From assembly GCA_004524535.1 (NCBI GenBank), contig SDNY01000077.1:1-16795 (forward strand): 16,795 nucleotides of DNA, read 5' to 3'. Positions 328 to 16,795 of the stretch are shown one piece after another; the first letter of the stretch is position 1; each line of letters opens with the position of its first letter. This stretch comes from Promethearchaeota archaeon (GTDB taxonomy: Archaea; Asgardarchaeota; Lokiarchaeia; Sigyniarchaeales; SOKP01). The notes under the pieces were generated by a model. It saw only the letters and a program-made list of their open reading frames with translations. It did no database searches and had not been told where the DNA came from. A program made the translations under genes and the position numbers.

Positions 328-3102
328 TTATTTACTTGTTTTTGAATATTTCCGTTTTATTACTTGTTTTCGAAGGGCTTTCCTTATCTCATCACCAATA
401 AATACAGAGCTCGAGATTAAAACAATCAATAACCAATCAAATGGCAAAAGTGGGACGGTACCTAAAAGAGCATTAAATATAATTAGGTAGACCGCACATA
501 TCTGAAGTGTAATTGAGAGAATTATTGCTCCGATAAGATATTTATTACTGGTCATTCCCATTTCAAAAAGAGATTTTGTTCTTGATCGACAATTGAGTGA
601 ATTAAACACTTGAAACATAGCCATAGTCGTAAAAGCCATAGTCTGCGCTTTTAGAAGAACATTATATTGGTTTAATGCGTAAATAAACATAAAAAGCGTA
701 CCAAACATCATCAATACCCCAACAAAAACAATATTTACCAGTATTTCTTTATTAAAGATAGGTTCTTCCGGACGCCGGGGTTTATGTGCCATAACATCGC
801 TTTCTTTGCCTTCCATTGCTAAGGTAACATCCAATACACCGTCTGTTACGAGATTCACCCAGAGAATTTGTACAGGTGTAAAGATTAGGAAAGTTTCACC
901 AAATAAAATAGGTAATAATATCAATGCTAGTATAATAACTGCAATCTCGCCTACGTTGGTACAGACTAAATATTTAACTACTTTTCTGATATTTTGAAAT
1001 ATTACACGTCCTTCTTCAACAGCACTTACAATACTTGAAAAGTCATCATCAGTTAGAACCATTTCAGAAGCCTCTTTAGCAACTTCTGTTCCTGCAATCC
1101 CCATAGCAACGCCTATATCTGCTGCTTTAAGTGCAGGCGCATCATTTACACCATCACCAGTCATACAAACAATATGATTTTTTCGCTTTAAGGAAGAGAC
1201 TATCTTATATTTATCCTCAGGTGATACACGTGCAAATATGCTAATATTATCTATTTTATCATCTAGTTCTTCTTCACTCATTGACTTTAAATCTTCTCCG
1301 GTTACTATGAGAGAGCCTTTCTTAAGAATGCCAATTTCAGTACCAATCGCTTCTGCAGTAATTTTATGATCACCTGTAGCCATAATCACCATAATTCCTG
1401 CTTTCTTACAGAGTTTAATTGAATCTTTTACTTCTGGTCTTGGGGGATCAATCATACCTACAACACCTTGAAAGACTAATTTTTTTTCTCCCCTTTCTAA
1501 AGCCTCTTTAAAACTTTCAAGTTGATCTATACTAATAGTTTGAGATGCAAAAGCAAGATTTCTCAATGCATTTTTTGCCATTTGGAATGTTATTTCATTA
1601 ATCTTATCAATTTCTACTTGTGTTAAATCTATTATATCACCATTTAGAAATATTTTGGAGCATAAATTTAAAACTACTTCGGGAGCACCTTTGAGATATA
1701 CAAGAATCTCTTTTGAAGAGTTTTTATGAAATGTAACCATATATTTTAATTTTGAATTAAATGGAATTTCATCTATACGCGTATAATTTTCTTCAATTTC
1801 CTCTTTATGGATACCTTTTTTGGCGGATAAAACTAATAATGCTCCTTCCGTAGGATCTCCATAAACGTCCCATACTCTTTCTTCCGTTTCCAATTTATGA
1901 CTCCTTAAACGTGCGTTATTACAAAGAGTTGCCGTTTTAAGTAAAGGAATAAGAGTTTTTAAAGAATTAATTTCGATTTCCTCACCATTAATTTCAAACT
2001 TTCCTTCAGGAGTAAAACCCGCTCCCGTAACATCAATAAATTTATTATCGACAAAAATTTTTCGAACCGTCATTTGATTCGTCGTTAATGTGCCAGTTTT
2101 GTCAGTGCAAATTACAGTTGCAGCACCTAAAGTATCTACAGCATGTAATTTACGGATTATAGCTTTTCTTTTTGCCATTCTATTTACGCCAACTGCTAGT
2201 GTTATAGTCATTACTACAGGTAGCCCTTCTGGAATGGCAGAAACTACAGAAGCCACTGCAAAGAAGAATATCTCAAATAATTCTATCCCCAATATAATTC
2301 CTAGTAAAAATGTTGTACCGCTCGCAATTAGGGCAACTATTGCAAAAATCTTTACTAAATCCGAAAGTTTGCTTTGGAGGGGGGTCTTTTCTTTTTCTGT
2401 ACCTTTAATTAATTCAGCAATTTGTCCAATCTCTGTATTCATGCCTGTTTCTACAACCACTGCTTTACCCCTTCCATAAGTTATAACTGTTCCCGCATAA
2501 GCAATATTCCTTCTATCTGCCACATTCACTTCCTCATCTATAGCATTTACGATCTTTTTGACAGAAACAGATTCTCCTGTCAACATGGATTCATCGATTT
2601 CAAGATTTATTGCTTCAAATATTCGGGCATCAGCAGGAACTTTATCTCCGCCTTCAAGAAGGATAACATCACCAGGAACTATTTCATTTGCTTTAATGCG
2701 CATTTCAATACAAGTTTTTTCCTCCGGACAGTCTCTTATCACATCACATTCAGGGCTAACCATTAGTTTAAGTGCTTGTAAACTCGTTTCAGCTTTATAC
2801 TCTTGAAGATAACCTATAATCGTATTAAATAAAACCACTAATATGATTACTATTGTATCAGCATATTTTCCAAATATAAAAGTTATAAATGCCGTTATGA
2901 GAATAATAGAAATTATGGGATTTTTTAATTGGGCAATAAGAATGGCAAATTTATTTATTGGTTCATCTTCTTTTAATTGATTAAAACCATATACCGCTAA
3001 TCTTCTCTTGACTTCTTCTTCAGATAACCCTTTTGGAGTTGATTTCAACTTATTAAATACTTCTTCCTTATCAATGCTATGCCAATTCATTTTAAAATCC
3101 AT
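328..3102 (-). CDS. Cation-transporting P-type ATPase, type IIA (Ca2+/Mn2+, SERCA/PMR1-like)
   Basis: 924-aa ORF with TGES (A domain), IPEGLP (M4), DKTGTLT phosphorylation site, KGAPE, DPPR, TGD, GDGVNDAPAL and QILWVNLVTD (M6). The true start may be the second Met (MNWHS). Confidence 0.96.
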   Translation of the reverse strand: MDFKMNWHSIDKEEVFNKLKSTPKGLSEEEVKRRLAVYGFNQLKEDEPINKFAILIAQLKNPIISIILITAFITFIFGKYADTIVIILVVLFNTIIGYLQEYKAETSLQALKLMVSPECDVIRDCPEEKTCIEMRIKANEIVPGDVILLEGGDKVPADARIFEAINLEIDESMLTGESVSVKKIVNAIDEEVNVADRRNIAYAGTVITYGRGKAVVVETGMNTEIGQIAELIKGTEKEKTPLQSKLSDLVKIFAIVALIASGTTFLLGIILGIELFEIFFFAVASVVSAIPEGLPVVMTITLAVGVNRMAKRKAIIRKLHAVDTLGAATVICTDKTGTLTTNQMTVRKIFVDNKFIDVTGAGFTPEGKFEINGEEIEINSLKTLIPLLKTATLCNNARLRSHKLETEERVWDVYGDPTEGALLVLSAKKGIHKEEIEENYTRIDEIPFNSKLKYMVTFHKNSSKEILVYLKGAPEVVLNLCSKIFLNGDIIDLTQVEIDKINEITFQMAKNALRNLAFASQTISIDQLESFKEALERGEKKLVFQGVVGMIDPPRPEVKDSIKLCKKAGIMVIMATGDHKITAEAIGTEIGILKKGSLIVTGEDLKSMSEEELDDKIDNISIFARVSPEDKYKIVSSLKRKNHIVCMTGDGVNDAPALKAADIGVAMGIAGTEVAKEASEMVLTDDDFSSIVSAVEEGRVIFQNIRKVVKYLVCTNVGEIAVIILALILLPILFGETFLIFTPVQILWVNLVTDGVLDVTLAMEGKESDVMAHKPRRPEEPIFNKEILVNIVFVGVLMMFGTLFMFIYALNQYNVLLKAQTMAFTTMAMFQVFNSLNCRSRTKSLFEMGMTSNKYLIGAIILSITLQICAVYLIIFNALLGTVPLLPFDWLLIVLISSSVFIGDEIRKALRKQVIKRKYSKTSK

Positions 3103-3673: not shown

Positions 3674-3820
3674 TAAATTTTTTTATTTAATATCTTACGA
3701 AAAATTGACCGACTTTATTTTTATGAGAGTGTTTTAGAATTAAAACTATAATTTTTAGGAAGATATCAGATTATTTTTCCAAGACTAATTTTTGTCAATC
3801 AGCGAGACGATTTTCGTTCT

Positions 3821-5616
3821 CTGTCCCCTACCGATAATACAGCAATTGTATATATATTTATATCAAAATCACGTTTTCCCATTAAACTTAAATAGATCTG
3901 TCCCCTATATTTATATATGGTTCATTTAGCTAAAAAGAAAAAGAACGGAAAGACCTATTTATACTTAGAGGAGCGTAGTTGGATTAATGGGAAGTCAAAA
4001 CGGCTTTGGCAAATTTATTTAGGACCTGAACACGAGTTTAAAAAAAGATCCAAATTGATTACGATTCCCGAAGTCGAAACTGAAACGATAGAATTCGGAT
4101 TAATTGCGGCATTACTGTTAATAGCAAGAAAATTGGGGGTTGTTAAGATTATTAATAAATTTACACATAAAAGGGAACAAGAGCTGAGCGTTGGTGAGCA
4201 CATGTTATTCGCAGCCATCAATAGGTGCGTGGAGCCGGTTTCTAAGAGTCAGTTGAAAGATTGGTTTGATTTAACCGTGTTAAAAAAGATCTACTCTAAA
4301 CCTGGATCGGCTTTAGATTCGAGGTCTTATTGGACTCATTTTCGCTATTTAAACGATAAAAACATTGAACGTATCGGAAATGCATTCGCTCAGGCAGTCA
4401 TCAAAGAATTTAACGTCTCTTTTCATAATCTCTTATTTGATCCTACGAATTTTTTTACTTATATTAACCCTAAAAAACCGAATCAAACCTATCCTCGACA
4501 TGGACACTCGAAAGAAGGTCGAAACACACTTCATCTGGTTAATTTTTCCCTGTTCTGTACTATAGACGGCGGCATTCCGTTATTACACTTAGTGTATCCT
4601 GGAAACGAGCAAGATGCGAAGCATTTCAGAACTGCATTGAAAAAACTCAAACAACGCTTAGATGGGTTAAATATTACCCCCTCCACGATTACGCTCACAT
4701 TTGACAAGGGAAATCTTTCAAAAGAAGCATTTAAATTCATTGACGAGGAGGAGCTTAACTATATCGCTTCAATTCGCCCCTCAACCCAAAAGGAGTTGCT
4801 TACAATCTCTCCCGAGGAATTTAAGTTGAAAATACTGCCTAATGGTAAAACAATTGGATTCAAACAGTTCACTCGCACGATTTACGGTAAAGAACGCAGA
4901 TTAATTGCAATCTATAATCCTAAACAAGCAAGATGGTTAGAAAAGAATTATGAAATTAAATTAGAAGAGAAAATTGCGGAAATTAGAGCATTTTTTCAAG
5001 CTCGTCTTAATAATACACGTTGGTCCAAACCAGATAAAATAAGAGAGAAGTGCCAGAGAGTATTAGGCTCTAAAAAATTTAAAAATGCGATAAAATTGGA
5101 GATTAACGGAAAAGAAGGAGCTCTATCCTTCTCAATTACTAAAGATGAGGAGGGATTTAGCCGACACGCGGTAACTTTGGGAAAGTCATTTTTAATGACA
5201 AATCGATTCGACTTGACTCCCATTGAAATCATTTGGGCATATCGTCAGCAATATATGATCGAGAAAGCTTTTAAACTCCTAAAAAATCCAAGTTATTTGA
5301 GCATCAGACCCATGTTCGTGAGCGTAGATTCCAGCATCAGGGGGCATTGTTTCACGTGCTTTCTTGGCTTATTGCTCTTGACTTTATTGGTACGTGATTT
5401 GATCAACCGAGAAATTCCAATGAGCATTCCAAAAGCAATTAAAACCTTAAATAGAATCAAGATTACCAAATTAACGATTCCGGGTAGAAAGAAAGCATTA
5501 TATAAAGTTAATAAAATGGAGGATCATTCGAAATTGATATATAATGCCTTAAACCTAAGCCAATTTGAGTGAATATTTCACGTTTTTGCATCAAGTTTTC
5601 AAACCTGTCCCCTACC
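3821..5616 (+). repeat. Internal direct repeats CTGTCCCCTA(CC) at 3821-3832, 3898-3907 and 5605-5616
   Basis: An exact 10-12-nt GC-rich motif occurs three times in the IS non-coding ends. The copies at 3898 and 5605 are each preceded by TCACGTTTT (3869, 5578). Confidence 0.75.
3917..5572 (+). CDS. IS1634-family DDE transposase
   Basis: 551 aa. N-terminal KKNGKTYLYLEE...W.NGK, LLFDPTNF (D1), GHSKEGR, TFDKGN (D2), YRQQYMIEKAFKLLK (E) and IRPMF...IRGHCFTCFLGLLL, typical of IS1634/IS4-clan enzymes. Confidence 0.92.
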   Translation: MVHLAKKKKNGKTYLYLEERSWINGKSKRLWQIYLGPEHEFKKRSKLITIPEVETETIEFGLIAALLLIARKLGVVKIINKFTHKREQELSVGEHMLFAAINRCVEPVSKSQLKDWFDLTVLKKIYSKPGSALDSRSYWTHFRYLNDKNIERIGNAFAQAVIKEFNVSFHNLLFDPTNFFTYINPKKPNQTYPRHGHSKEGRNTLHLVNFSLFCTIDGGIPLLHLVYPGNEQDAKHFRTALKKLKQRLDGLNITPSTITLTFDKGNLSKEAFKFIDEEELNYIASIRPSTQKELLTISPEEFKLKILPNGKTIGFKQFTRTIYGKERRLIAIYNPKQARWLEKNYEIKLEEKIAEIRAFFQARLNNTRWSKPDKIREKCQRVLGSKKFKNAIKLEINGKEGALSFSITKDEEGFSRHAVTLGKSFLMTNRFDLTPIEIIWAYRQQYMIEKAFKLLKNPSYLSIRPMFVSVDSSIRGHCFTCFLGLLLLTLLVRDLINREIPMSIPKAIKTLNRIKITKLTIPGRKKALYKVNKMEDHSKLIYNALNLSQFE

Positions 5617-6553: not shown

Positions 6554-7327
6554 TCAAATTTCAAATAATTTATTTAGAAAGTATGCGATTCCAAGATAAC
6601 TTATTCCAATAATTTTCTTTTTTCGATCTTCAGGATTAACAGAAATTTCTAACAAGGATAAATTATCCAATTTATTTATATAACCATTTATTGCTCCTCT
6701 TGAATACTCTTCTCCTCGTTTCTCATCTAATGCAATCTTAATTTCATCGATCGATTCATACGACTTGGTTTTAGCAAGTAATTCATTCTCATCAAAAGAT
6801 AATTTAGGATTAAAAAATTGTTCTTTATTCTCAAAATCATTAAAGAAGAGTTCTAAGAATTCATGTTGCTTATCGGTAATGGAATTAAGTTGGACGGTCA
6901 TAATCTTAATATTCTCCTTTAACCCTTGTTTATCGCCGACTGTTTTATAAATCCCATGCATAATTTCGGTATTTGTAATACAACACGCTAAATAAAACCA
7001 AATATCGATATATATGAGCCCTCCGGAAATATTTACTTTAACTTCTTCTATCCCCGATTGCTTTTGTTGTAATATCTTATGGGTTAATTCTGCAATAGGT
7101 TTATTAGATATATGAAAACTAAATTCAGCACTTTCGACTTTTATTATCCTTTCTTCATAGTGTTTGATTAATTCATTTAAGGTCTCTTTAGCTTTATCAG
7201 TGCCAGATAGGGGTTCTTTTTCCGTTATAAAAATAATTTTATCTACAATTTCTTTATCAATTGATAAAATAAGTCGATCTGAGGTATGACCTACTGGTAC
7301 AATTTGGCAATAATTTATTTCCATCAT
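6554..7327 (-). CDS. CARF-domain plus winged-HTH transcriptional regulator (Csa3/DUF6293-like)
   Basis: N-terminal IVPVGHTSDR strand-loop and VNISGG motif characteristic of CARF folds. C-terminal SRGAINGYINKLDNLSLLEI...DRKKKIIGISYLG is a wHTH recognition helix and wing. Confidence 0.8.
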   Translation of the reverse strand: MMEINYCQIVPVGHTSDRLILSIDKEIVDKIIFITEKEPLSGTDKAKETLNELIKHYEERIIKVESAEFSFHISNKPIAELTHKILQQKQSGIEEVKVNISGGLIYIDIWFYLACCITNTEIMHGIYKTVGDKQGLKENIKIMTVQLNSITDKQHEFLELFFNDFENKEQFFNPKLSFDENELLAKTKSYESIDEIKIALDEKRGEEYSRGAINGYINKLDNLSLLEISVNPEDRKKKIIGISYLGIAYFLNKLFEI

Positions 7328-11019: not shown

Positions 11020-11123
11020 TTAACCACCATTTACAAATCCCCCCTAATTATGAGTTCATTGAAATAGAATTTAAACTTTTGAAATTTCTAAATACTCATT
11101 AAATAGAGACAATAGCATGAGGA

Positions 11124-11813
11124 CTTATCGGCACGATTTATGATTTATTTGATTTGTAAATATAATCAAAATTTGATTTTTAAATATTTAAACTACGATT
11201 GAAAGAAAGGATCTAAATATTAAATTTTAAAATATAAAAATTTATAAGTCAATTTTTTCTTATAGGAGATAAGTGGGGTAAAAAATGAGTGATTGAAAAT
11301 TAGCTGGACTAAATAAAGTTTTTTACCCACTTATCAAAAATAAGATATAGCCATTCCAAAATGGCTTAAAGAATTGATATATAAAGATAAACCCCTCATG
11401 ATTTTATAGCCTATCATCTTAAAATAGCACTCTCTTTTCAATAAAAATACGATGCTTATCGGTCGAACTTTTTTAAAGATTAAAATATCAGATAAATCCA
11501 TATAGAAATTTATCTTTACAATATTTTCGTTATTTGCTTTAATATAAAAATACGTGGACTGTGCTGAATTTCAAAAAAATTTTTCCTTTAAATAAGTTTT
11601 CAGAAAATTTACTCTCTCAACCTAATTAAATATCAAAATTTATTTGAATTGAATGTGAAATTATATTTCACTTGGACTAAATAAAGAAAGATAAACTTAT
11701 AGAAATATAAGTGAATTTTCGAAAAAGCCCAGCAGGATACGGGAAGATTAAATTTTGGTAAATTAATTAGAATATTAATACCATATGGGGTAATACACTT
11801 GCTTATCGGACGA
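11124..11813. repeat. Dispersed direct and inverted repeats in the 880-bp divergent intergenic region
   Basis: CTTATCGG..CGA at 11124, 11455 and 11802; TGGACTAAATAAAG at 11305 and 11673; inverted pair GATAAGTGGGGTAAAAAA (11268-11285) / TTTTTTACCCACTTATC (11319-11335). Confidence 0.7.
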
Positions 11814-11899: not shown

Positions 11900-13951
11900 A
11901 TGACGAATAAATTTATTCATAATAATTTAGAAGTATTTATAAATAAAATTTATACCGATACCGATATTGAGTTTTGGATTCACATTTTTGAGATGGAATA
12001 TTCTGGTGGATCTTGGTCTAGAGTACATCAGTATATTCAAGATTTTAACAAAAAAAAACATACAGATTATAAAATTCCTCCTTTTTACAATGGGATGATA
12101 CCAATAGTCCAGCGTTATTTTGAAACTAGGGGATTGGATTATGATAATTGGATAAGGAAATTTGGGAGACGTAAAGCAAGGGGACCACGAACAGACGAAG
12201 AAATTCTTGAGATGATTAATATTTATGAAGATCCAGATTTCGGGGGCTCTATTAATTGTGTTAGAGAATTTTTATTTGAAATTGAGGGGTATGTTTTAGG
12301 TGAAACTACGATAAGAAGAGATATTCAGAATTTCTTTGATGAGGGAAAATATTATCAATATAAGAAAATAGACCTCACTTATAAAGATTGGATAAAGAGA
12401 TATAAAAAGTCTTATATAAGAGAGTTGATGACTCCTGATAAAACGAATCAATCAAATGAATATATTATGGTCTATAATGCTATAAAAGATATTTTCAGAC
12501 GATATAAACTTGCGGACTTTAACAATTTGAATAATTATAATGATTTTTTAATATTTGGTATCCAAGAGGGGTATCAACCAATAAAGCTAGGAGTTAAATC
12601 TGTTATTGAGACACATTCTCAAAAAAGTATTGAACTCATTTGTACGCATGGCTCTATTATAATTGACTCAAATCAAACACTTTTTACTATTGACGATGAT
12701 TGCAACATTATAGAGATTCAAGGAAATATGATTAAAAAAGGCACTCCTTTATTGATACCACGATTATTAAATGTTAAAATTAATGATAACCCTCTAGACC
12801 TAGCTAATTGTGGGAGAAGATTTTTGAAAGATGGTATTGAATATATTGAACAATTTAATAAGACAGCTAAGAGATTCATCAGAAAGGACTTTTGGTTAGG
12901 TTTTATCTTAGGACAGTATGTTGCTGAAGGAACTATGGGCTCAAGATTGCGCCCCACAACAATCTTAACTTCTAGTACAGATTTAAATATAGCGGAAAAA
13001 GTAAAAACTTTAGCATTTCAATTGTTTGGATTAACATTCAATCTCAGAAAAACGAGAGTTAAAAAATGCAAAAGATGTGGGTTGCGAACACAAATTATTA
13101 ATGACGATGCTAATGAATGTTCCGAATGTGGTTCTATATATTACAGACAATATGCTGTGGCCACGAAAAAGCGAGTAGCTCAATGTATTTTCACAAGAGG
13201 GTTAGACTTAGAACCAGTTTATTCATATTTAAAGGAGATCCCTCCTATTATTTATAATGCTCCAATTGAATGTGTAAAAGGTTTTTTATTTGGATATTTT
13301 TTAGGAGATGGTTCTCGAAGAGATTATAGAGATAGAGGTAGAACATTTGATCTAAATTTTGAGACCAGTTCTCGGAGATTGATTTTTGGATTGAAGTTCT
13401 TATTAAAACGATTAGGTGTAATTTCAATTGTAAACAGACACGAACCACCACCTGATCGAGAGAATTCTAAAATTATGTATAGTCTAATTATACGAGGGTC
13501 CAGCAACTATGAAATTCTAAAGCAATTTTTAAGTTTCTTACCCGCTATTGATTATACTACGACTGATATTAAGACTTCCGCTAATACGCAAGAATTTATG
13601 AAAAAATTGAACGATGAACTCCAGAAGATTCACCAAATAACCTTAAGGAAATTGAGTAATGAAGGTATAATTCCCCCTAATGCAGCACATGTAGCAACTC
13701 AGATTCAGAGAAAAACAAATCTTTCTGAGATTTTACTTTTAAAAACTATTGAAGCACTAAGAAAGACAGGTTATATAACACCTATCGTGGAAAAAATGGA
13801 AGCGATTTTTAAGCATAATACATTTACTCATGTGAAAAAAATCAACCCCATCATTATTAGTGATGAGAAAGAACCTACTTACAATATTTCTGTGGGAGGA
13901 TATGCTTACTGTGTTGGAACTGCATATATATATATATCAAAAGCGGAGTAA
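11900..13951 (+). CDS. Intein-derived LAGLIDADG endonuclease-like protein with degenerate Hint domain, Zn-ribbon insert and duplicated N-terminal domain
   Basis: Block C LGFILGQYVAEG, block E FLFGYFLGDGS, block H TSSRRLIFGLKFLLKRLGV, Hint-like VKSVIETH...IELICTHGSIIIDSNQTLFT...IKKGTPLLIPR, block F-like TYNISV, and CKRC/CSEC. GGAG RBS upstream. Confidence 0.82.
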   Translation: MTNKFIHNNLEVFINKIYTDTDIEFWIHIFEMEYSGGSWSRVHQYIQDFNKKKHTDYKIPPFYNGMIPIVQRYFETRGLDYDNWIRKFGRRKARGPRTDEEILEMINIYEDPDFGGSINCVREFLFEIEGYVLGETTIRRDIQNFFDEGKYYQYKKIDLTYKDWIKRYKKSYIRELMTPDKTNQSNEYIMVYNAIKDIFRRYKLADFNNLNNYNDFLIFGIQEGYQPIKLGVKSVIETHSQKSIELICTHGSIIIDSNQTLFTIDDDCNIIEIQGNMIKKGTPLLIPRLLNVKINDNPLDLANCGRRFLKDGIEYIEQFNKTAKRFIRKDFWLGFILGQYVAEGTMGSRLRPTTILTSSTDLNIAEKVKTLAFQLFGLTFNLRKTRVKKCKRCGLRTQIINDDANECSECGSIYYRQYAVATKKRVAQCIFTRGLDLEPVYSYLKEIPPIIYNAPIECVKGFLFGYFLGDGSRRDYRDRGRTFDLNFETSSRRLIFGLKFLLKRLGVISIVNRHEPPPDRENSKIMYSLIIRGSSNYEILKQFLSFLPAIDYTTTDIKTSANTQEFMKKLNDELQKIHQITLRKLSNEGIIPPNAAHVATQIQRKTNLSEILLLKTIEALRKTGYITPIVEKMEAIFKHNTFTHVKKINPIIISDEKEPTYNISVGGYAYCVGTAYIYISKAE

Positions 13952-13952
13952 G

Positions 13953-13972
13953 AAAGACGAGAGAACGTCTTT
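13953..13972 (+). terminator. Hairpin immediately after the stop codon (possible terminator or 3' stability element)
   Basis: AAAGACG-AGAGAA-CGTCTTT, a perfect 7-bp stem starting at the second nucleotide after the TAA. Confidence 0.4.
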
Positions 13973-14299
13973 ATTTAGACCATTTTTGCAATAATCATTG
14001 GGGGAAACTCTTTTCTAACCGAAATAATGGAAGGGATAAATTTTATTGCTACTCTCCGAGTGATTAATTAAATTTACTATCTTTTATAATATTGATATTA
14101 ATTCCTTTGTTATTATAATTTAAGCAAATGTGATCTTTTTGTTTTTTTCTTTACATTCATTTCCTTGTTTGATAATAAAATTCTTAGACACAAGATCAAA
14201 AATTGATTGACATTTAGAATACAAAAAAAAATAAGGAATGGAGAATTAAAATATCAAAAAATAATTGGAGGAAACAAGTAAAAATATAGTTGATTAAGA

Positions 14300-16795
14300 A
14301 TGACAGAATATAATCCAAAAAAAATTGAAGTTAAATGGCAAAAAAGATGGGAGAAAGATAAAATATTTGAAGCGAAGAAAGATCCTAAAAAACCTAAATA
14401 TTATGTATTAGAAATGTATCCTTATCCATCTGGAAAACTTCATATGGGACATCTCAGAAATTATACTATTGGTGATTGTTTTGCGAGATATAAAAGAATG
14501 AGTGGTTTTAATGTTCTTTACCCCATGGGATATGATTCATTCGGGATGCCCGCTGAGAATGCGGCAATAGATCATGGTGCTAATCCTGAGGAGTGGACAG
14601 ATAAGAACATTGATACAATGAAAAATCAACAAAAGCGAATAGGACTCTCTTATGATTGGACACGGGAGATTTATAGTCATAATCCCGCTTATTATAAATG
14701 GGATCAATGGTTTTTCCTAAAGATGTTTGAAAAAGGGCTTGCATATAAGCAGGAAAGCTATGTAAATTGGTGCAATACATGTGCTACTGTATTAGCAAAC
14801 GAACAAGCTCAAGGTGGTAAATGTTGGCGCTGCAATAACGATGTAGAGCAGAAATTCTTAACTCAATGGTTTCTAAAAATTCGCGATTATGCTGAAGAAC
14901 TTTTAGATGGTTTAAATACGGTAGATTGGCCTGAAAAAGTGAAACTCATGCAGCGAAACTGGATTTCAAAATCGGAGGGTTCAATTATCAAATTTCCTAT
15001 AGTAGGTGAAAATAAGACTGTAGATATTTTTACAACTCGACCGGATACTCTTTATGGTGTGACTTTCATGATATATGCTCCTGAACATCCAGACGTTAGA
15101 AGTTGGGTTCAAGGAACTGAATATGAAGAAGAGTTTGAAAAATTATATCAAGAGGTAATGAAGGAGAACAAATTCGAGCGAACTGATATTGAAATTGAAA
15201 AAAAAGGAATGTTCATCGGGAAATATGCAATTAATCCTATAACAAATGAAGAGGTTCCTATATATATTGGTAATTTCGTTATTTATGAATATGGTGCTGG
15301 GGCAGTCATGGCAGTTCCCGCGCATGACCAACGGGATTTTGAATTCGCAAAAACATATGATATCCCCATAAAAATCGTGATCCAACCTCATGACTATGAA
15401 ATAAATGTTGATAAGATGGTGAGAGCCTATGAAGGAGATGGAATTTTAGTCAATTCGGAAGAATTTAATGGTATGGAGAATCGTAATGCAATAAACGCTA
15501 TAACAGAAAAGTTAGATAAAATAAAAAAAGGTTATTCTACAATTAATTATAAATTGAGAGATTGGGGTATTTCAAGACAGCGCTATTGGGGATGTCCAAT
15601 ACCAATTATATATTGTGATGATTGTGGGACCATTCCTGTTCCTTATAAAGATTTACCAGTATTTCTTCCTAAAGATGTAAAATTTACAGGTTCAGGTAAT
15701 CCCTTGGAGACCAGCGAAAGCTTTATAACTACCAAATGCCCGAAATGTGGGAAATCAGGAACACGAGAAACGGACACGATGGATACATTCATAGATAGCT
15801 CATGGTATTTTTTTGCATTCTGCGACCCACCTTCAATAGAGGGAGACATACCTTATAATAAAGATCTTATAAATTATTGGGGTAATGTAGACCAATATAT
15901 TGGAGGTATCGAACAGGTATTTACTATTCGTAGAACCTCGAAAACGCAGTAATGCATTTAATTTACGCAAGATTTTTTACTAAAATTGCGAGAGATTTAG
16001 GACTCCAGAAACACGATGAACCTTTCCAAAAGCTCTTGACTCAAGGAATGATTAACAAAGCTCATCCTTATTGCCCTCAATGTGATCGATTTGCGATGAA
16101 AGCTGAAATGAACGATGATATATGCAAATTATGCGGGACGAGATATATTTTAAAAAGTGTAAAAATGAGTAAAAGTTATGGTAATACTGTTGATCCTGGT
16201 GCCATTATAGATGCCTATGGTGCTGATGCAGCAAGATTTTTTATACTTTTTGGAGCGAGTCCTGCCTCTGGATTAGAATGGTCGGATGAAGGAGTTGGCT
16301 TTGCAAATAAGTTTATGAACAGAACTTATCAACTCTTTACTGACTCTATCGAAAGTTTTAGAAAAGAAAAGACCACCCGAGACGAGTTAATGGTTTTTCA
16401 TCTAAATAAAACAATAAAATTAGTCACAGAAGCATTAGAAAAAATTGCTATTAGAGAAGCTGTTAATAATATTATTCAATTTACCACAGAATTAAGCAAA
16501 TATAAAACTGAAGGAGTAATTGAAGAAATTTACCAAGAATGTTTAAAAAAATTAGCATTACTTTTACATCCTATCGTTCCTCACATAACTGAAGAAGTTT
16601 GGGAATTTATTGGTGAATTTAAAAATAAAGGTTATTTAAGCTTGGTCTCTTGGCCGTCCTACGATGAACAACTACTTACCCCAGAATCTGATTTTAAATG
16701 GAAGCTTATGAATAATATAATGGACGATATTAATAGCATTAAATTAGCTATGAAAAAAGAAATATTAGAAGATATTTCAATCATTATAGCTGAAG
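14300..16795 (+). CDS. leuS: Leucine--tRNA ligase, bacterial-type core; two exons (14300-15914 and 15944->16795), truncated by the window edge
   Basis: MYPYPSGKLHMGH (HIGH), CNTCATVLANEQ..CWRC, CP1 editing TTRPDT and GAVMAVPAHDQRD, RDWGISRQRYWG, DTMDTFIDSSWYF. After the 29-nt insert the frame continues AVMHLIYARFF, KMSKS (16162-16176), YGADAARFF and PIVPHITEEVW with no stop to the window end. Confidence 0.96.
15915..15943 (+). other. Candidate 29-nt bulge-helix-bulge (tRNA-splicing-endonuclease type) intron in leuS mRNA
   Basis: TCGA-AC^A-GGT...ACC-TCGA-AA^A: 4-bp central helix, two 3-nt bulges and an internal hairpin. Removal gives ATC GAA CAC GCA = I-E-H-A. Confidence 0.85.

Follow-up and report, generated by a model that had tools for sequence, protein, structure and literature searches.

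The leuS locus

The stretch of DNA analysed here (the window) is a whole contig of 16,795 nt, C185 (SDNY01000077.1), from the Promethearchaeota archaeon assembly GCA_004524535.1 (G000), a draft genome of 3.66 Mb in 198 contigs with 30.4% G+C and a completeness of 99.1%. Its final part carries leuS, the gene for leucyl-tRNA synthetase, the reading frame of which is interrupted by 29 nt. We interpret these, with a probability of about 0.85, as an intron of the bulge-helix-bulge (BHB) type, in its relaxed HBh' form, which the endonuclease EndA and the ligase RtcB would remove from the pre-mRNA of the genome's single leuS.

The leuS frame is open on the + strand from 14300 to a TAA at 15950-15952, where it ends in ...GGIEQVFTIRRTSKTQ, having lost the protein directly past GGIE. 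A second frame, open from 15934 to the end of the window, reads AVMHLIYARF...KMSKS.... This break had been described in an earlier note made from the letters of the DNA alone, and every base named there was found in its place. Exon 1 (14300-15914, +) encodes the N-terminal part of the catalytic core and the CP1 editing domain, as far as GGIE and the first base of a His codon, with Pfam matches to tRNA-synt_1 (profile positions 1-226) and to the LeuRS editing domain. Exon 2 (15944-16795, +) supplies the rest of the His codon, AVMHL..., KMSKS and the anticodon-binding domain before it runs off the window; the C-terminus continues on contig C54:2-472.

Deletion of the 29 nt at 15915-15943 (+; equivalently 15916-15944) gives a stop-free frame of 822 aa to the end of the window, which reads ...GGIEHAVMHL..., whereas the unspliced message would meet a TAA stop 12 codons past the 5' splice site. 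The position of the cuts is tightly constrained, as a shift of one base to the left replaces His by Asn in the motif, and only cuts at 15914/15943 (or 15915/15944) yield His. Among the 29 leuS loci read from 39 matching genomes of the order, GG[IVA]EH[AS] is uninterrupted and the His invariant in all 29. The earlier note's choice of cuts, after 15914 and 15943, regenerates GGIEHAVMHL and is thus borne out by the relatives.

The insert was not found in the 119 other genomes of the family with a leuS match, none of which has a frame ending at the site; seven of the shortest of these frames were read and all have an unbroken GGIEHA, one locus at a contig end (G129:C30) being left unread. Conservation of the insert among relatives was thus not supported (0/39 genomes of the order and 0/119 of the family). 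No other copy of the insert was detected in G000 by blastn-short (best match 14 nt, E 0.37), the stretch 13900-16795 had 0 Rfam matches (E up to 1), and ARAGORN found no tRNA within the window. From its distribution among these sequences, the insert looks like a species-level novelty that was recently gained.

The insert as DNA and the state of the gene

Six sequencing runs turned up for this stretch, none of them of RNA. Four public runs, all of DNA and all taken as contigs, were compared over 15300-16500. In X1, the likely source run, an independent contig of 11,004 nt at a depth of 48.3 covers the whole interval without a difference or a gap. The same study supplied a second sample, X2, in which a 289-nt contig spans 15846-16134 with 3 differences and no gap, and one of the variants (T15925C) falls in the loop of the intron hairpin. 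A contig of X3, from another study, begins at 15926 within the insert and extends to 16227. No contig in the four runs joins 15914 to 15944. Insert-free relatives co-occur in the samples, and a loose end in X3 after 15906 leads into an uninterrupted ...IEHAVMH... frame.

An assembly or sequencing artefact might be suspected in a metagenome-assembled draft whose window is a whole 16.8-kb contig, but such an origin is next to impossible given that X1, assembled independently, shows 0 differences at depth 48, that the insert recurs whole in X2 and in part in X3, and that many separately assembled genomes carry insertions of this kind. The check on the DNA that the earlier note had set out thus favoured it, as the insert stands in independent contigs of the source run and of the second sample and, in part, in another study.

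It could also be argued that the insertion has inactivated leuS, leaving a young pseudogene while another enzyme or an unassembled copy charges the tRNA. The frame is broken by translation table 11, the insert is unique to this species when compared with the 119 family genomes, and the genome is a draft of 198 contigs, all of which would agree with inactivation. We regard this as quite improbable. No second leuS was found in the 99.1%-complete G000, the next matches being partial, 35% and 31% identical and in frames of 866 and 685 aa; a second intact copy, which the earlier note had named as damaging to its reading, is therefore missing from this assembly. At depth 48 the insert is fixed, the contigs showing no other allele; a diverged strain of the second sample has it too, and about 20 other essential or conserved genes bear the same kind of insert.

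Moreover, no further stops or frameshifts occur in leuS, and conservation downstream of the insert is normal. Identity to seven relatives is 78-82% before the insert and 62-75% over the 280 residues after it. Against the relative L017 the values upstream and downstream are 79.6% and 69.6%, while two relatives with intact genes differ from each other in the same manner (80.0% and 66.7%), so that the downstream fall in identity is no sign of decay. A single-copy gene whose frame is broken under table 11 would indeed be miscalled by annotation pipelines, as the earlier note had foreseen.

Geometry of the leuS insert

The fold proposed for the insert (all on the + strand) has a central helix in which the exon 1 bases TCGA (15909-15912) pair with the intron bases TCGA (15938-15941), 4/4 by Watson-Crick pairing. 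The 5' bulge is ACA (15913-15915), with the predicted cut after 15914, its canonical second nucleotide. The intron hairpin, or h' helix (15916-15937), opens with GGT (15916-15918) paired to ACC (15935-15937) and an unpaired A at 15919; its distal part, read from the sequence, pairs TTTAC (15920-15924) with GTAGA (15930-15934) around a TATTC loop (15925-15929). On the 3' side, the bases AAA (15942-15944) form the corresponding 'bulge', with the predicted cut after 15943 and no exon-exon helix to close it.

The 5' bulge is therefore closed on one side by the central helix and on the other by the GGT/ACC hairpin. A 4-bp Watson-Crick central helix with a directly adjoining helix of at least 3 bp, as present here, is rare by chance: for a 29-nt pseudo-intron with a fixed cut it occurs at 125 of 521,343 genome positions (2.4e-4) with Watson-Crick pairs only and at 890 of 521,343 when G-U pairs are allowed, frequencies to be read with the two cut placements permitted at the leuS insert in mind. 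A more distant pairing, of TATTG (15898-15902) with CAGTA (15947-15951), adds -2.5 kcal/mol. Overall, the insert fits the relaxed HBh' form. The relaxed BHB of the earlier note accordingly stands in its 4-bp central helix, 5' bulge, hairpin and relaxed character, except that the adjacent exon-exon helix, described there as weak, is absent.

A class of 29-31-nt insertions in coding genes

A first scan of G000, which looked for pairs of open reading frames (ORFs) joinable by a BHB core, returned 1,461 candidates in 904 ORF pairs and served as a lead only; it was dropped as a census, since the candidates were mostly chance matches at ordinary gene junctions. A scan for continuity with paralogues revealed three further interrupted genes. 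These are an ABC ATPase (C138) with a 34-nt insertion whose removal restores DEPTTG... of the Walker B region, a MoxR-like ATPase (C26) with a 29-nt insertion, and an E2-like enzyme (C123) with a 29-nt insertion whose removal restores HPN. For the E2-like gene, the orthologue in a second genome of the same genus (G005) reads exactly the join predicted by the BHB register.

A census that made no use of structure was then taken from 1.95 Mb (about 59%) of G005. The 2,398 stop-to-stop ORFs in this portion were searched by tblastn against G000 for single G005 proteins whose match contains extra DNA that introduces a stop or shifts the frame. An orthologue-like match was obtained for about 1,200 queries, and the boundaries were set by DNA identity to G005 alone. 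The yield was 20 insertions in 16 genes, of 29 (3), 30 (13) or 31 nt (4), plus one skipped on C169, and all of them are absent from G005. On the + strand of G000 they lie at C129:9460; C17:338 and 452-472; C104:12303, 6214 and 6346; C8:15448 and 3086; C32:3639 and 3791-3818; C98:21997 and 11115-11141; C100:23207 and 12034; C134:3701; C115:18054; C50:3919-3933; C180:283; C26:5939-5969; C123:17017-17035; and, for the skipped case, C169:13365-13380.

The genes affected include EF-2, with the insertion just before EQERGITI; RpoA', with two insertions, one of them inside GHFGHIEL between GHFGH and IEL; argininosuccinate synthase (ArgG), between SGGL and DTS; and RNase HII, between DEAGR and GP. GyrB-like, TldD, Elp3-like, MoxR-like and E2-like genes, two CODH/ACS-type subunits and a small GTPase were also found to be interrupted.

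The 20 census insertions and leuS (21 in all) were tested for structure at the cuts permitted by the orthologues, with cuts shifted by 6-14 nt as controls. A complete central helix (4/4) was present in 15/21 compared with 25/378 shifted controls, and one of at least 3/4 in 21/21 compared with 124/378. When an adjoining intron helix of at least 3 bp was required in addition to 4/4, the counts were 13/21 and 1/378, and 0/21 on the antisense strand. The occurrence of the register on the sense strand only argues for a signal in RNA and against one in DNA. An exon-exon helix of at least 2 bp was found in 7/21 (54/378 in the controls). The first intron base is A in 16/21 and the last two bases are AA in 15/21. 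The skipped C169 insertion (29 nt) has a central helix of 3/4 and a 7-bp helix. The weakness of the exon-exon helix shows the class as a whole to be of the HBh' type and leuS to be a typical member. The earlier note's suggestion that other 'frameshifted' genes be scanned for the same BHB geometry was therefore fruitful, giving 20 further insertions in the same register and on the sense strand only.

The census bears on the possibility that the insert is retained in the message and skipped by the ribosome. Bypass elements, such as that of T4 gene 60 and the 'byps' of Magnusiomyces mitochondria, need matching take-off and landing codons, and like the present insertions they are short, structured, found in many coding genes and absent from the protein. 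In leuS, take-off from GAA at 15911-15913 and landing at GAA 15940-15942 could be imagined, the insert being flanked by a direct repeat TCGAA and holding a hairpin, and the insertions of the yeast-mitochondrial case being of a similar short size and spread over many genes. The codon match nevertheless fails, as landing on GAA would place Asn where 29/29 relatives have His, and there is no stop codon directly past the take-off codon. The failure extends to 16/21 class members, in which the boundary microhomology is 0-2 nt (at least 3 nt in only 5/21), so that matched triplets are impossible for most of them. The enrichment of the BHB register far above the controls also speaks against bypass, which we hold to be very unlikely.

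Removal of the insert by some other route was likewise considered, namely excision of DNA in some copies in the manner of internal eliminated sequences, cleavage by another RNA endonuclease, or spliceosome-like removal of 15917-15933 as a GT..AG intron. These 17 nt begin with GTATTT, contain TACTAT, resembling a branch-site box, and end in TAG, which gives them the look of a tiny GT..AG intron, and their deletion restores the frame; the contigs, furthermore, are unable to exclude rare DNA variants. Yet the 17-nt deletion gives GGIEQNLENAVMHL, in which the invariant His is lost and 4 residues are added, and the GT..AG look is taken for coincidence. The structural signal on the sense strand only (13/21 against 0/21) points to RNA and not DNA, and the four runs contain no contig joining 15914 to 15944. 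Such routes are improbable, if slightly less so than inactivation of the gene.

The sequences of the 21 introns are no more similar to one another than shuffled sequences (mean 5.77 compared with 5.74, best 12 compared with 11), and the copying of one mobile sequence was accordingly rejected as their source. G005 has 5 credible insertions of its own (29-36 nt), each with three or four of the 4 central pairs (R4:215762, R5:191663, R2:89800, R6:91560-91595 and R4:125372, on contigs C4, C5, C2, C6 and C4). They occur at other sites, which are empty in G000, and the genes hit include acetyl-CoA synthetase-like, glycerol-kinase-like and thiolase-like ones. The sets of insertions thus differ between two species of one genus. 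At least about 25 mini-introns were seen in G000, and the total is probably some 35-50, an estimate scaled from the 20 found at 59% sampling and the other cases.

ACS (C52), AOR (C144) and aldolase (C16) genes are candidates for further cases of 30-32 nt. In raw counts, the census introns seem to lean towards the 5' end, with 19/20 in the first 58% of the orthologue ORF and 8/20 in the first 14%, and many interrupt the best-conserved motifs of their proteins (P-loop, Walker B, HPN, GHFGH).

The EF-2 intron across the family

While the leuS insert stands alone among the genomes of its family, the intron in EF-2 has counterparts. An EF-2 query against 150 genomes of the class gave matches about 30 nt longer, with internal stops, in 24 genomes including G000, all of them from family f1, in which 125 genomes were matched. 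Among the matches listed for other families (24 genomes) no EF-2 was longer with stops, 128 further matches being unlisted. In a sample of 251 genomes of the phylum, stops in the first 200 residues of EF-2 occurred, among the matches listed, only in f1 (11 of the 54 f1 genomes with a match, G000 included; 242 matches unlisted).

The 24 EF-2 sequences contain 25 insertions, every one of them 30 nt long. Nineteen are located before EQERGITI (G000 and 18 others) and six within AHIDHGKTT. Two of the 19 lie six bases upstream of the rest (L146 in G001 and L161 in G020), and these shifted introns have CTGT for CTGA as their 3' tetranucleotide, in keeping with the altered exon partner (ACAG/ACGG in place of TCAG). 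The shift may reflect either sliding of the intron or an independent gain.

In the 16 genomes whose intron shares its position with that of G000, 96.9% of the cells pair, compared with 27.7-49.2% when the partners are slid, and the intron loop varies freely. Two compensatory pairs were found, one changing from G-C to A-U in 3 sequences and the other from U-A to A-U in 4. The covariation score is 0.148, compared with 0.074 ± 0.015 for shuffled alignments, and 0/500 shuffles scored as high; the genomes are related, so that the shuffle count overstates their independence, but the slid controls keep this relatedness and still fail.

Splicing enzymes and the proposed mechanism

Removal by EndA and RtcB, as put forward in the earlier note, requires that both be encoded, and G000 was found to encode two EndA paralogues (107.9 and 70.7 bits), each with N-terminal and catalytic domains, together with one RtcB (561 bits). 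One EndA has its best match in the catalytic subunit of the Aeropyrum pernix heterotetramer (3p1z_B, E 7.6e-37), and the alignment spans the loop region of that protein. According to PMC5829648, only (alpha-beta)2 and epsilon2 endonucleases cut the HBh' form, and Asgard archaea have the (alpha-beta)2 type of EndA with an L1 loop. A broad specificity of the G000 enzyme is inferred from this subunit type.

In the proposed mechanism, the 4-bp central helix of the transcript would arise between exon bases 15909-15912 and intron bases 15938-15941, and the intron hairpin at 15916-15937 would close the 3-nt 5' bulge. The two-subunit EndA would cut after 15914 and after 15943. Ligation by RtcB would then create the CAC codon for His and with it the motif GGIEHAVMHL; the predicted junction peptide spans GGIEHAVMHLIYAR.

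Several observations weigh against this interpretation. The outer exon-exon helix beside the 3' bulge is absent (H1 = 0 bp), which leaves the 3-nt bulge at the 3' site open, and the insert is not of the strict hBHBh' form with two bulges, each closed by a flanking helix. Folded without constraint, the 76-nt region adopts a competing hairpin with a minimum energy of -14.3 kcal/mol and a z of only -1.93, whereas the best fold that keeps the BHB core has -12.0 kcal/mol (core -7.5), which is 2.3 kcal/mol less stable. The leuS insert has no counterpart in 119 other family genomes, its only variant lies in the loop, and the covariation seen in the class is that of the EF-2 intron. Within the class, 6/21 members have only 3/4 central pairs and 5/21 have an adjoining helix shorter than 3 bp. 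The subunit roles and L1 loop of the EndA proteins are putative, being judged from an alignment and a paper, and we infer the cutting and joining of the transcript from its geometry, from comparisons and from the encoded enzymes, not from RNA.

With these points taken into account, the leuS intron is best seen as a recent gain within a large class of mini-introns (29-31 nt) that interrupt protein-coding genes, and it looks to be tolerated because a broad-specificity endonuclease removes the members of this class. It is also fairly likely, if less firmly so than for leuS itself, that EndA/RtcB splicing of mRNA is a routine step of gene expression across one family of Lokiarchaeia, with introns gained and lost at the species level. 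The earlier note had proposed a coupling of tRNA maturation to leucine charging. As the same kind of intron occurs in ABC ATPase, MoxR-like, E2-like, CODH/ACS, EF-2 and RpoA' genes, many of them unrelated, nothing singles out leuS, and this proposal was not supported.

Comparison with known systems

A BHB intron in the pre-mRNA of cbf5 (pseudouridine synthase) has been reported in Crenarchaeota (Watanabe 2002; Yoshinari 2006; Yokobori 2009, PMC2738675). The leuS intron resembles it as a short intron with a BHB-type fold in an archaeal coding gene, presumably served by a hetero-oligomeric tRNA-splicing endonuclease and ligation, and in being present in some lineages and absent in others. In contrast to cbf5, it belongs to leuS in a Loki-type Asgard archaeon and is one of dozens per genome, in unrelated genes, of 29-31 nt and mostly HBh'. 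The splicing of cbf5 was shown experimentally, while here the introns are known from DNA alone. The cbf5 gene of G000 itself is uninterrupted, with its TruB_N match in one stop-free frame of 353 aa.

Heavy loads of introns have been described in the tRNA genes of Asgard archaea (PMC11291895; preprint 10.64898/2026.10.13.758758). The host group, the presumed enzyme, the BHB placement and the repeated lineage-specific gains are the same, and the coding-gene introns of this analysis share with them the absence of detectable copying between sites. These papers differ in treating tRNA genes only, the preprint containing 'mRNA' 0 times and PMC11291895 'protein-coding' 0 times. In the present case, by contrast, the introns lie in a translated message without a tRNA body to aid recognition, and the unspliced form contains stops or frameshifts.

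A more distant parallel is found in HAC1/XBP1 mRNA, where IRE1 cuts out a very short coding intron at structured sites, an RtcB-type ligase joins the ends and the frame changes. The likeness extends to the short coding intron, the protein endonuclease acting at structured sites, the RtcB-type ligase and the change of frame. The differences are that IRE1 acts on twin stem-loops and not on a BHB, that the reaction is a regulated stress switch on one message, and that the endonuclease step is not homologous. IRE1 splicing is named in PMC13149111.

The literature searched, which left out subscription journals and supplementary files, has reports of BHB introns from archaeal mRNA only for cbf5. The same search, with the same sources outside it, including supplementary files that could hold intron tables, gave no report of such introns in Asgard protein-coding genes.

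Other features of the window and of the genome

Directly upstream of leuS, a 683-aa ORF at 11900-13951 (+) contains a LAGLIDADG_3 domain (E 1.2e-15) and looks like a free-standing homing-endonuclease-like gene. The window also carries a DDE-type transposase ORF at 3917-5572 (+), a protein with a Csa3/HFX_2341-like N-terminal domain at 6554-7327 (-) and a P-type cation ATPase at 328-3102. Four other long ORFs of the window gave no Pfam match.

Several events met in the searches of the genome were not retained as coding-gene introns. One 27-nt tRNA-Ser intron (C22) picked up by the census was excluded from the count. Also dropped were a duplicate of C100-, the MoxR intron as read in antisense (C26, +; central helix 0/4), and eight events, of 12-19 nt or otherwise outside 25-39 nt, located within stop-to-stop ORFs where these extend upstream or show low identity. 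A 31-nt insertion at C7:~20170-20200 (+) was dropped, there being no long ORF and a central helix of 1/4 on the tested strand; relative to G005 it holds a GCGCG...CGCGC hairpin and might belong, as an intron, to a non-coding RNA encoded on the opposite strand. On C36 (-, ~5566-5589), a plain frameshift without extra DNA in a 740-aa-type gene has the look of an ordinary pseudogene, and C145:14728-15132 is a decayed, frameshifted duplicate of the 3' end of the neighbouring 453-aa gene.

The HdrA/MvhD-type pairs on C147, C152, C15 and C162, which might be taken for split genes, are ordinary adjacent genes. Several same-frame breaks at TGA were also rejected as introns, since the TGA aligns with Cys in the paralogues. 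HdrA-like and MvhD-like genes have a single in-frame stop where their paralogues have Cys (...DDCSI*ILGP..., ...GADGV.I.G*Y..EC..), at C145:21186-22509 (+), C27 2083-3985 and C83 5301-7077, and in MvhD-like pieces on C96, C27 and C83 ('-' strand entries being given on the reverse-complemented contig). These stops probably represent selenocysteine and not introns.

ARAGORN recognised only 22 tRNA genes in the whole of G000, 13 of them with introns, despite a completeness of 99%. Many tRNA genes of this genome are probably too interrupted for recognition, a situation already reported from Asgard archaea.

Implications

Enzyme-spliced introns in archaeal coding genes have so far rested essentially on one gene, the cbf5 of Crenarchaeota. 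The larger result of this study is a set of uniform mini-introns in the coding genes of one Lokiarchaeial family, in which leuS, EF-2, RpoA', ArgG, RNase HII, CODH/ACS subunits and other genes appear to need the tRNA-splicing machinery for any expression at all. The family is one of Asgard archaea, and no group stands closer to the eukaryotes. Annotation would call such genes pseudogenes or split genes, and the in-frame cases mimic stop-codon recoding; the gene content and completeness of Lokiarchaeia are therefore misread in many genomes.

The class is young and uniform in size, its members bear no similarity to one another in sequence and its sites differ within a genus, which makes it a natural system for the study of intron origin. 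If the interpretation is true, a close prokaryotic relative of eukaryotes must remove introns from its messages before or during their reading by the ribosome. Introns that carry stops raise the question of the order of splicing relative to coupled transcription and translation, a matter central to ideas on the origin of the nucleus and one that can now be tested.

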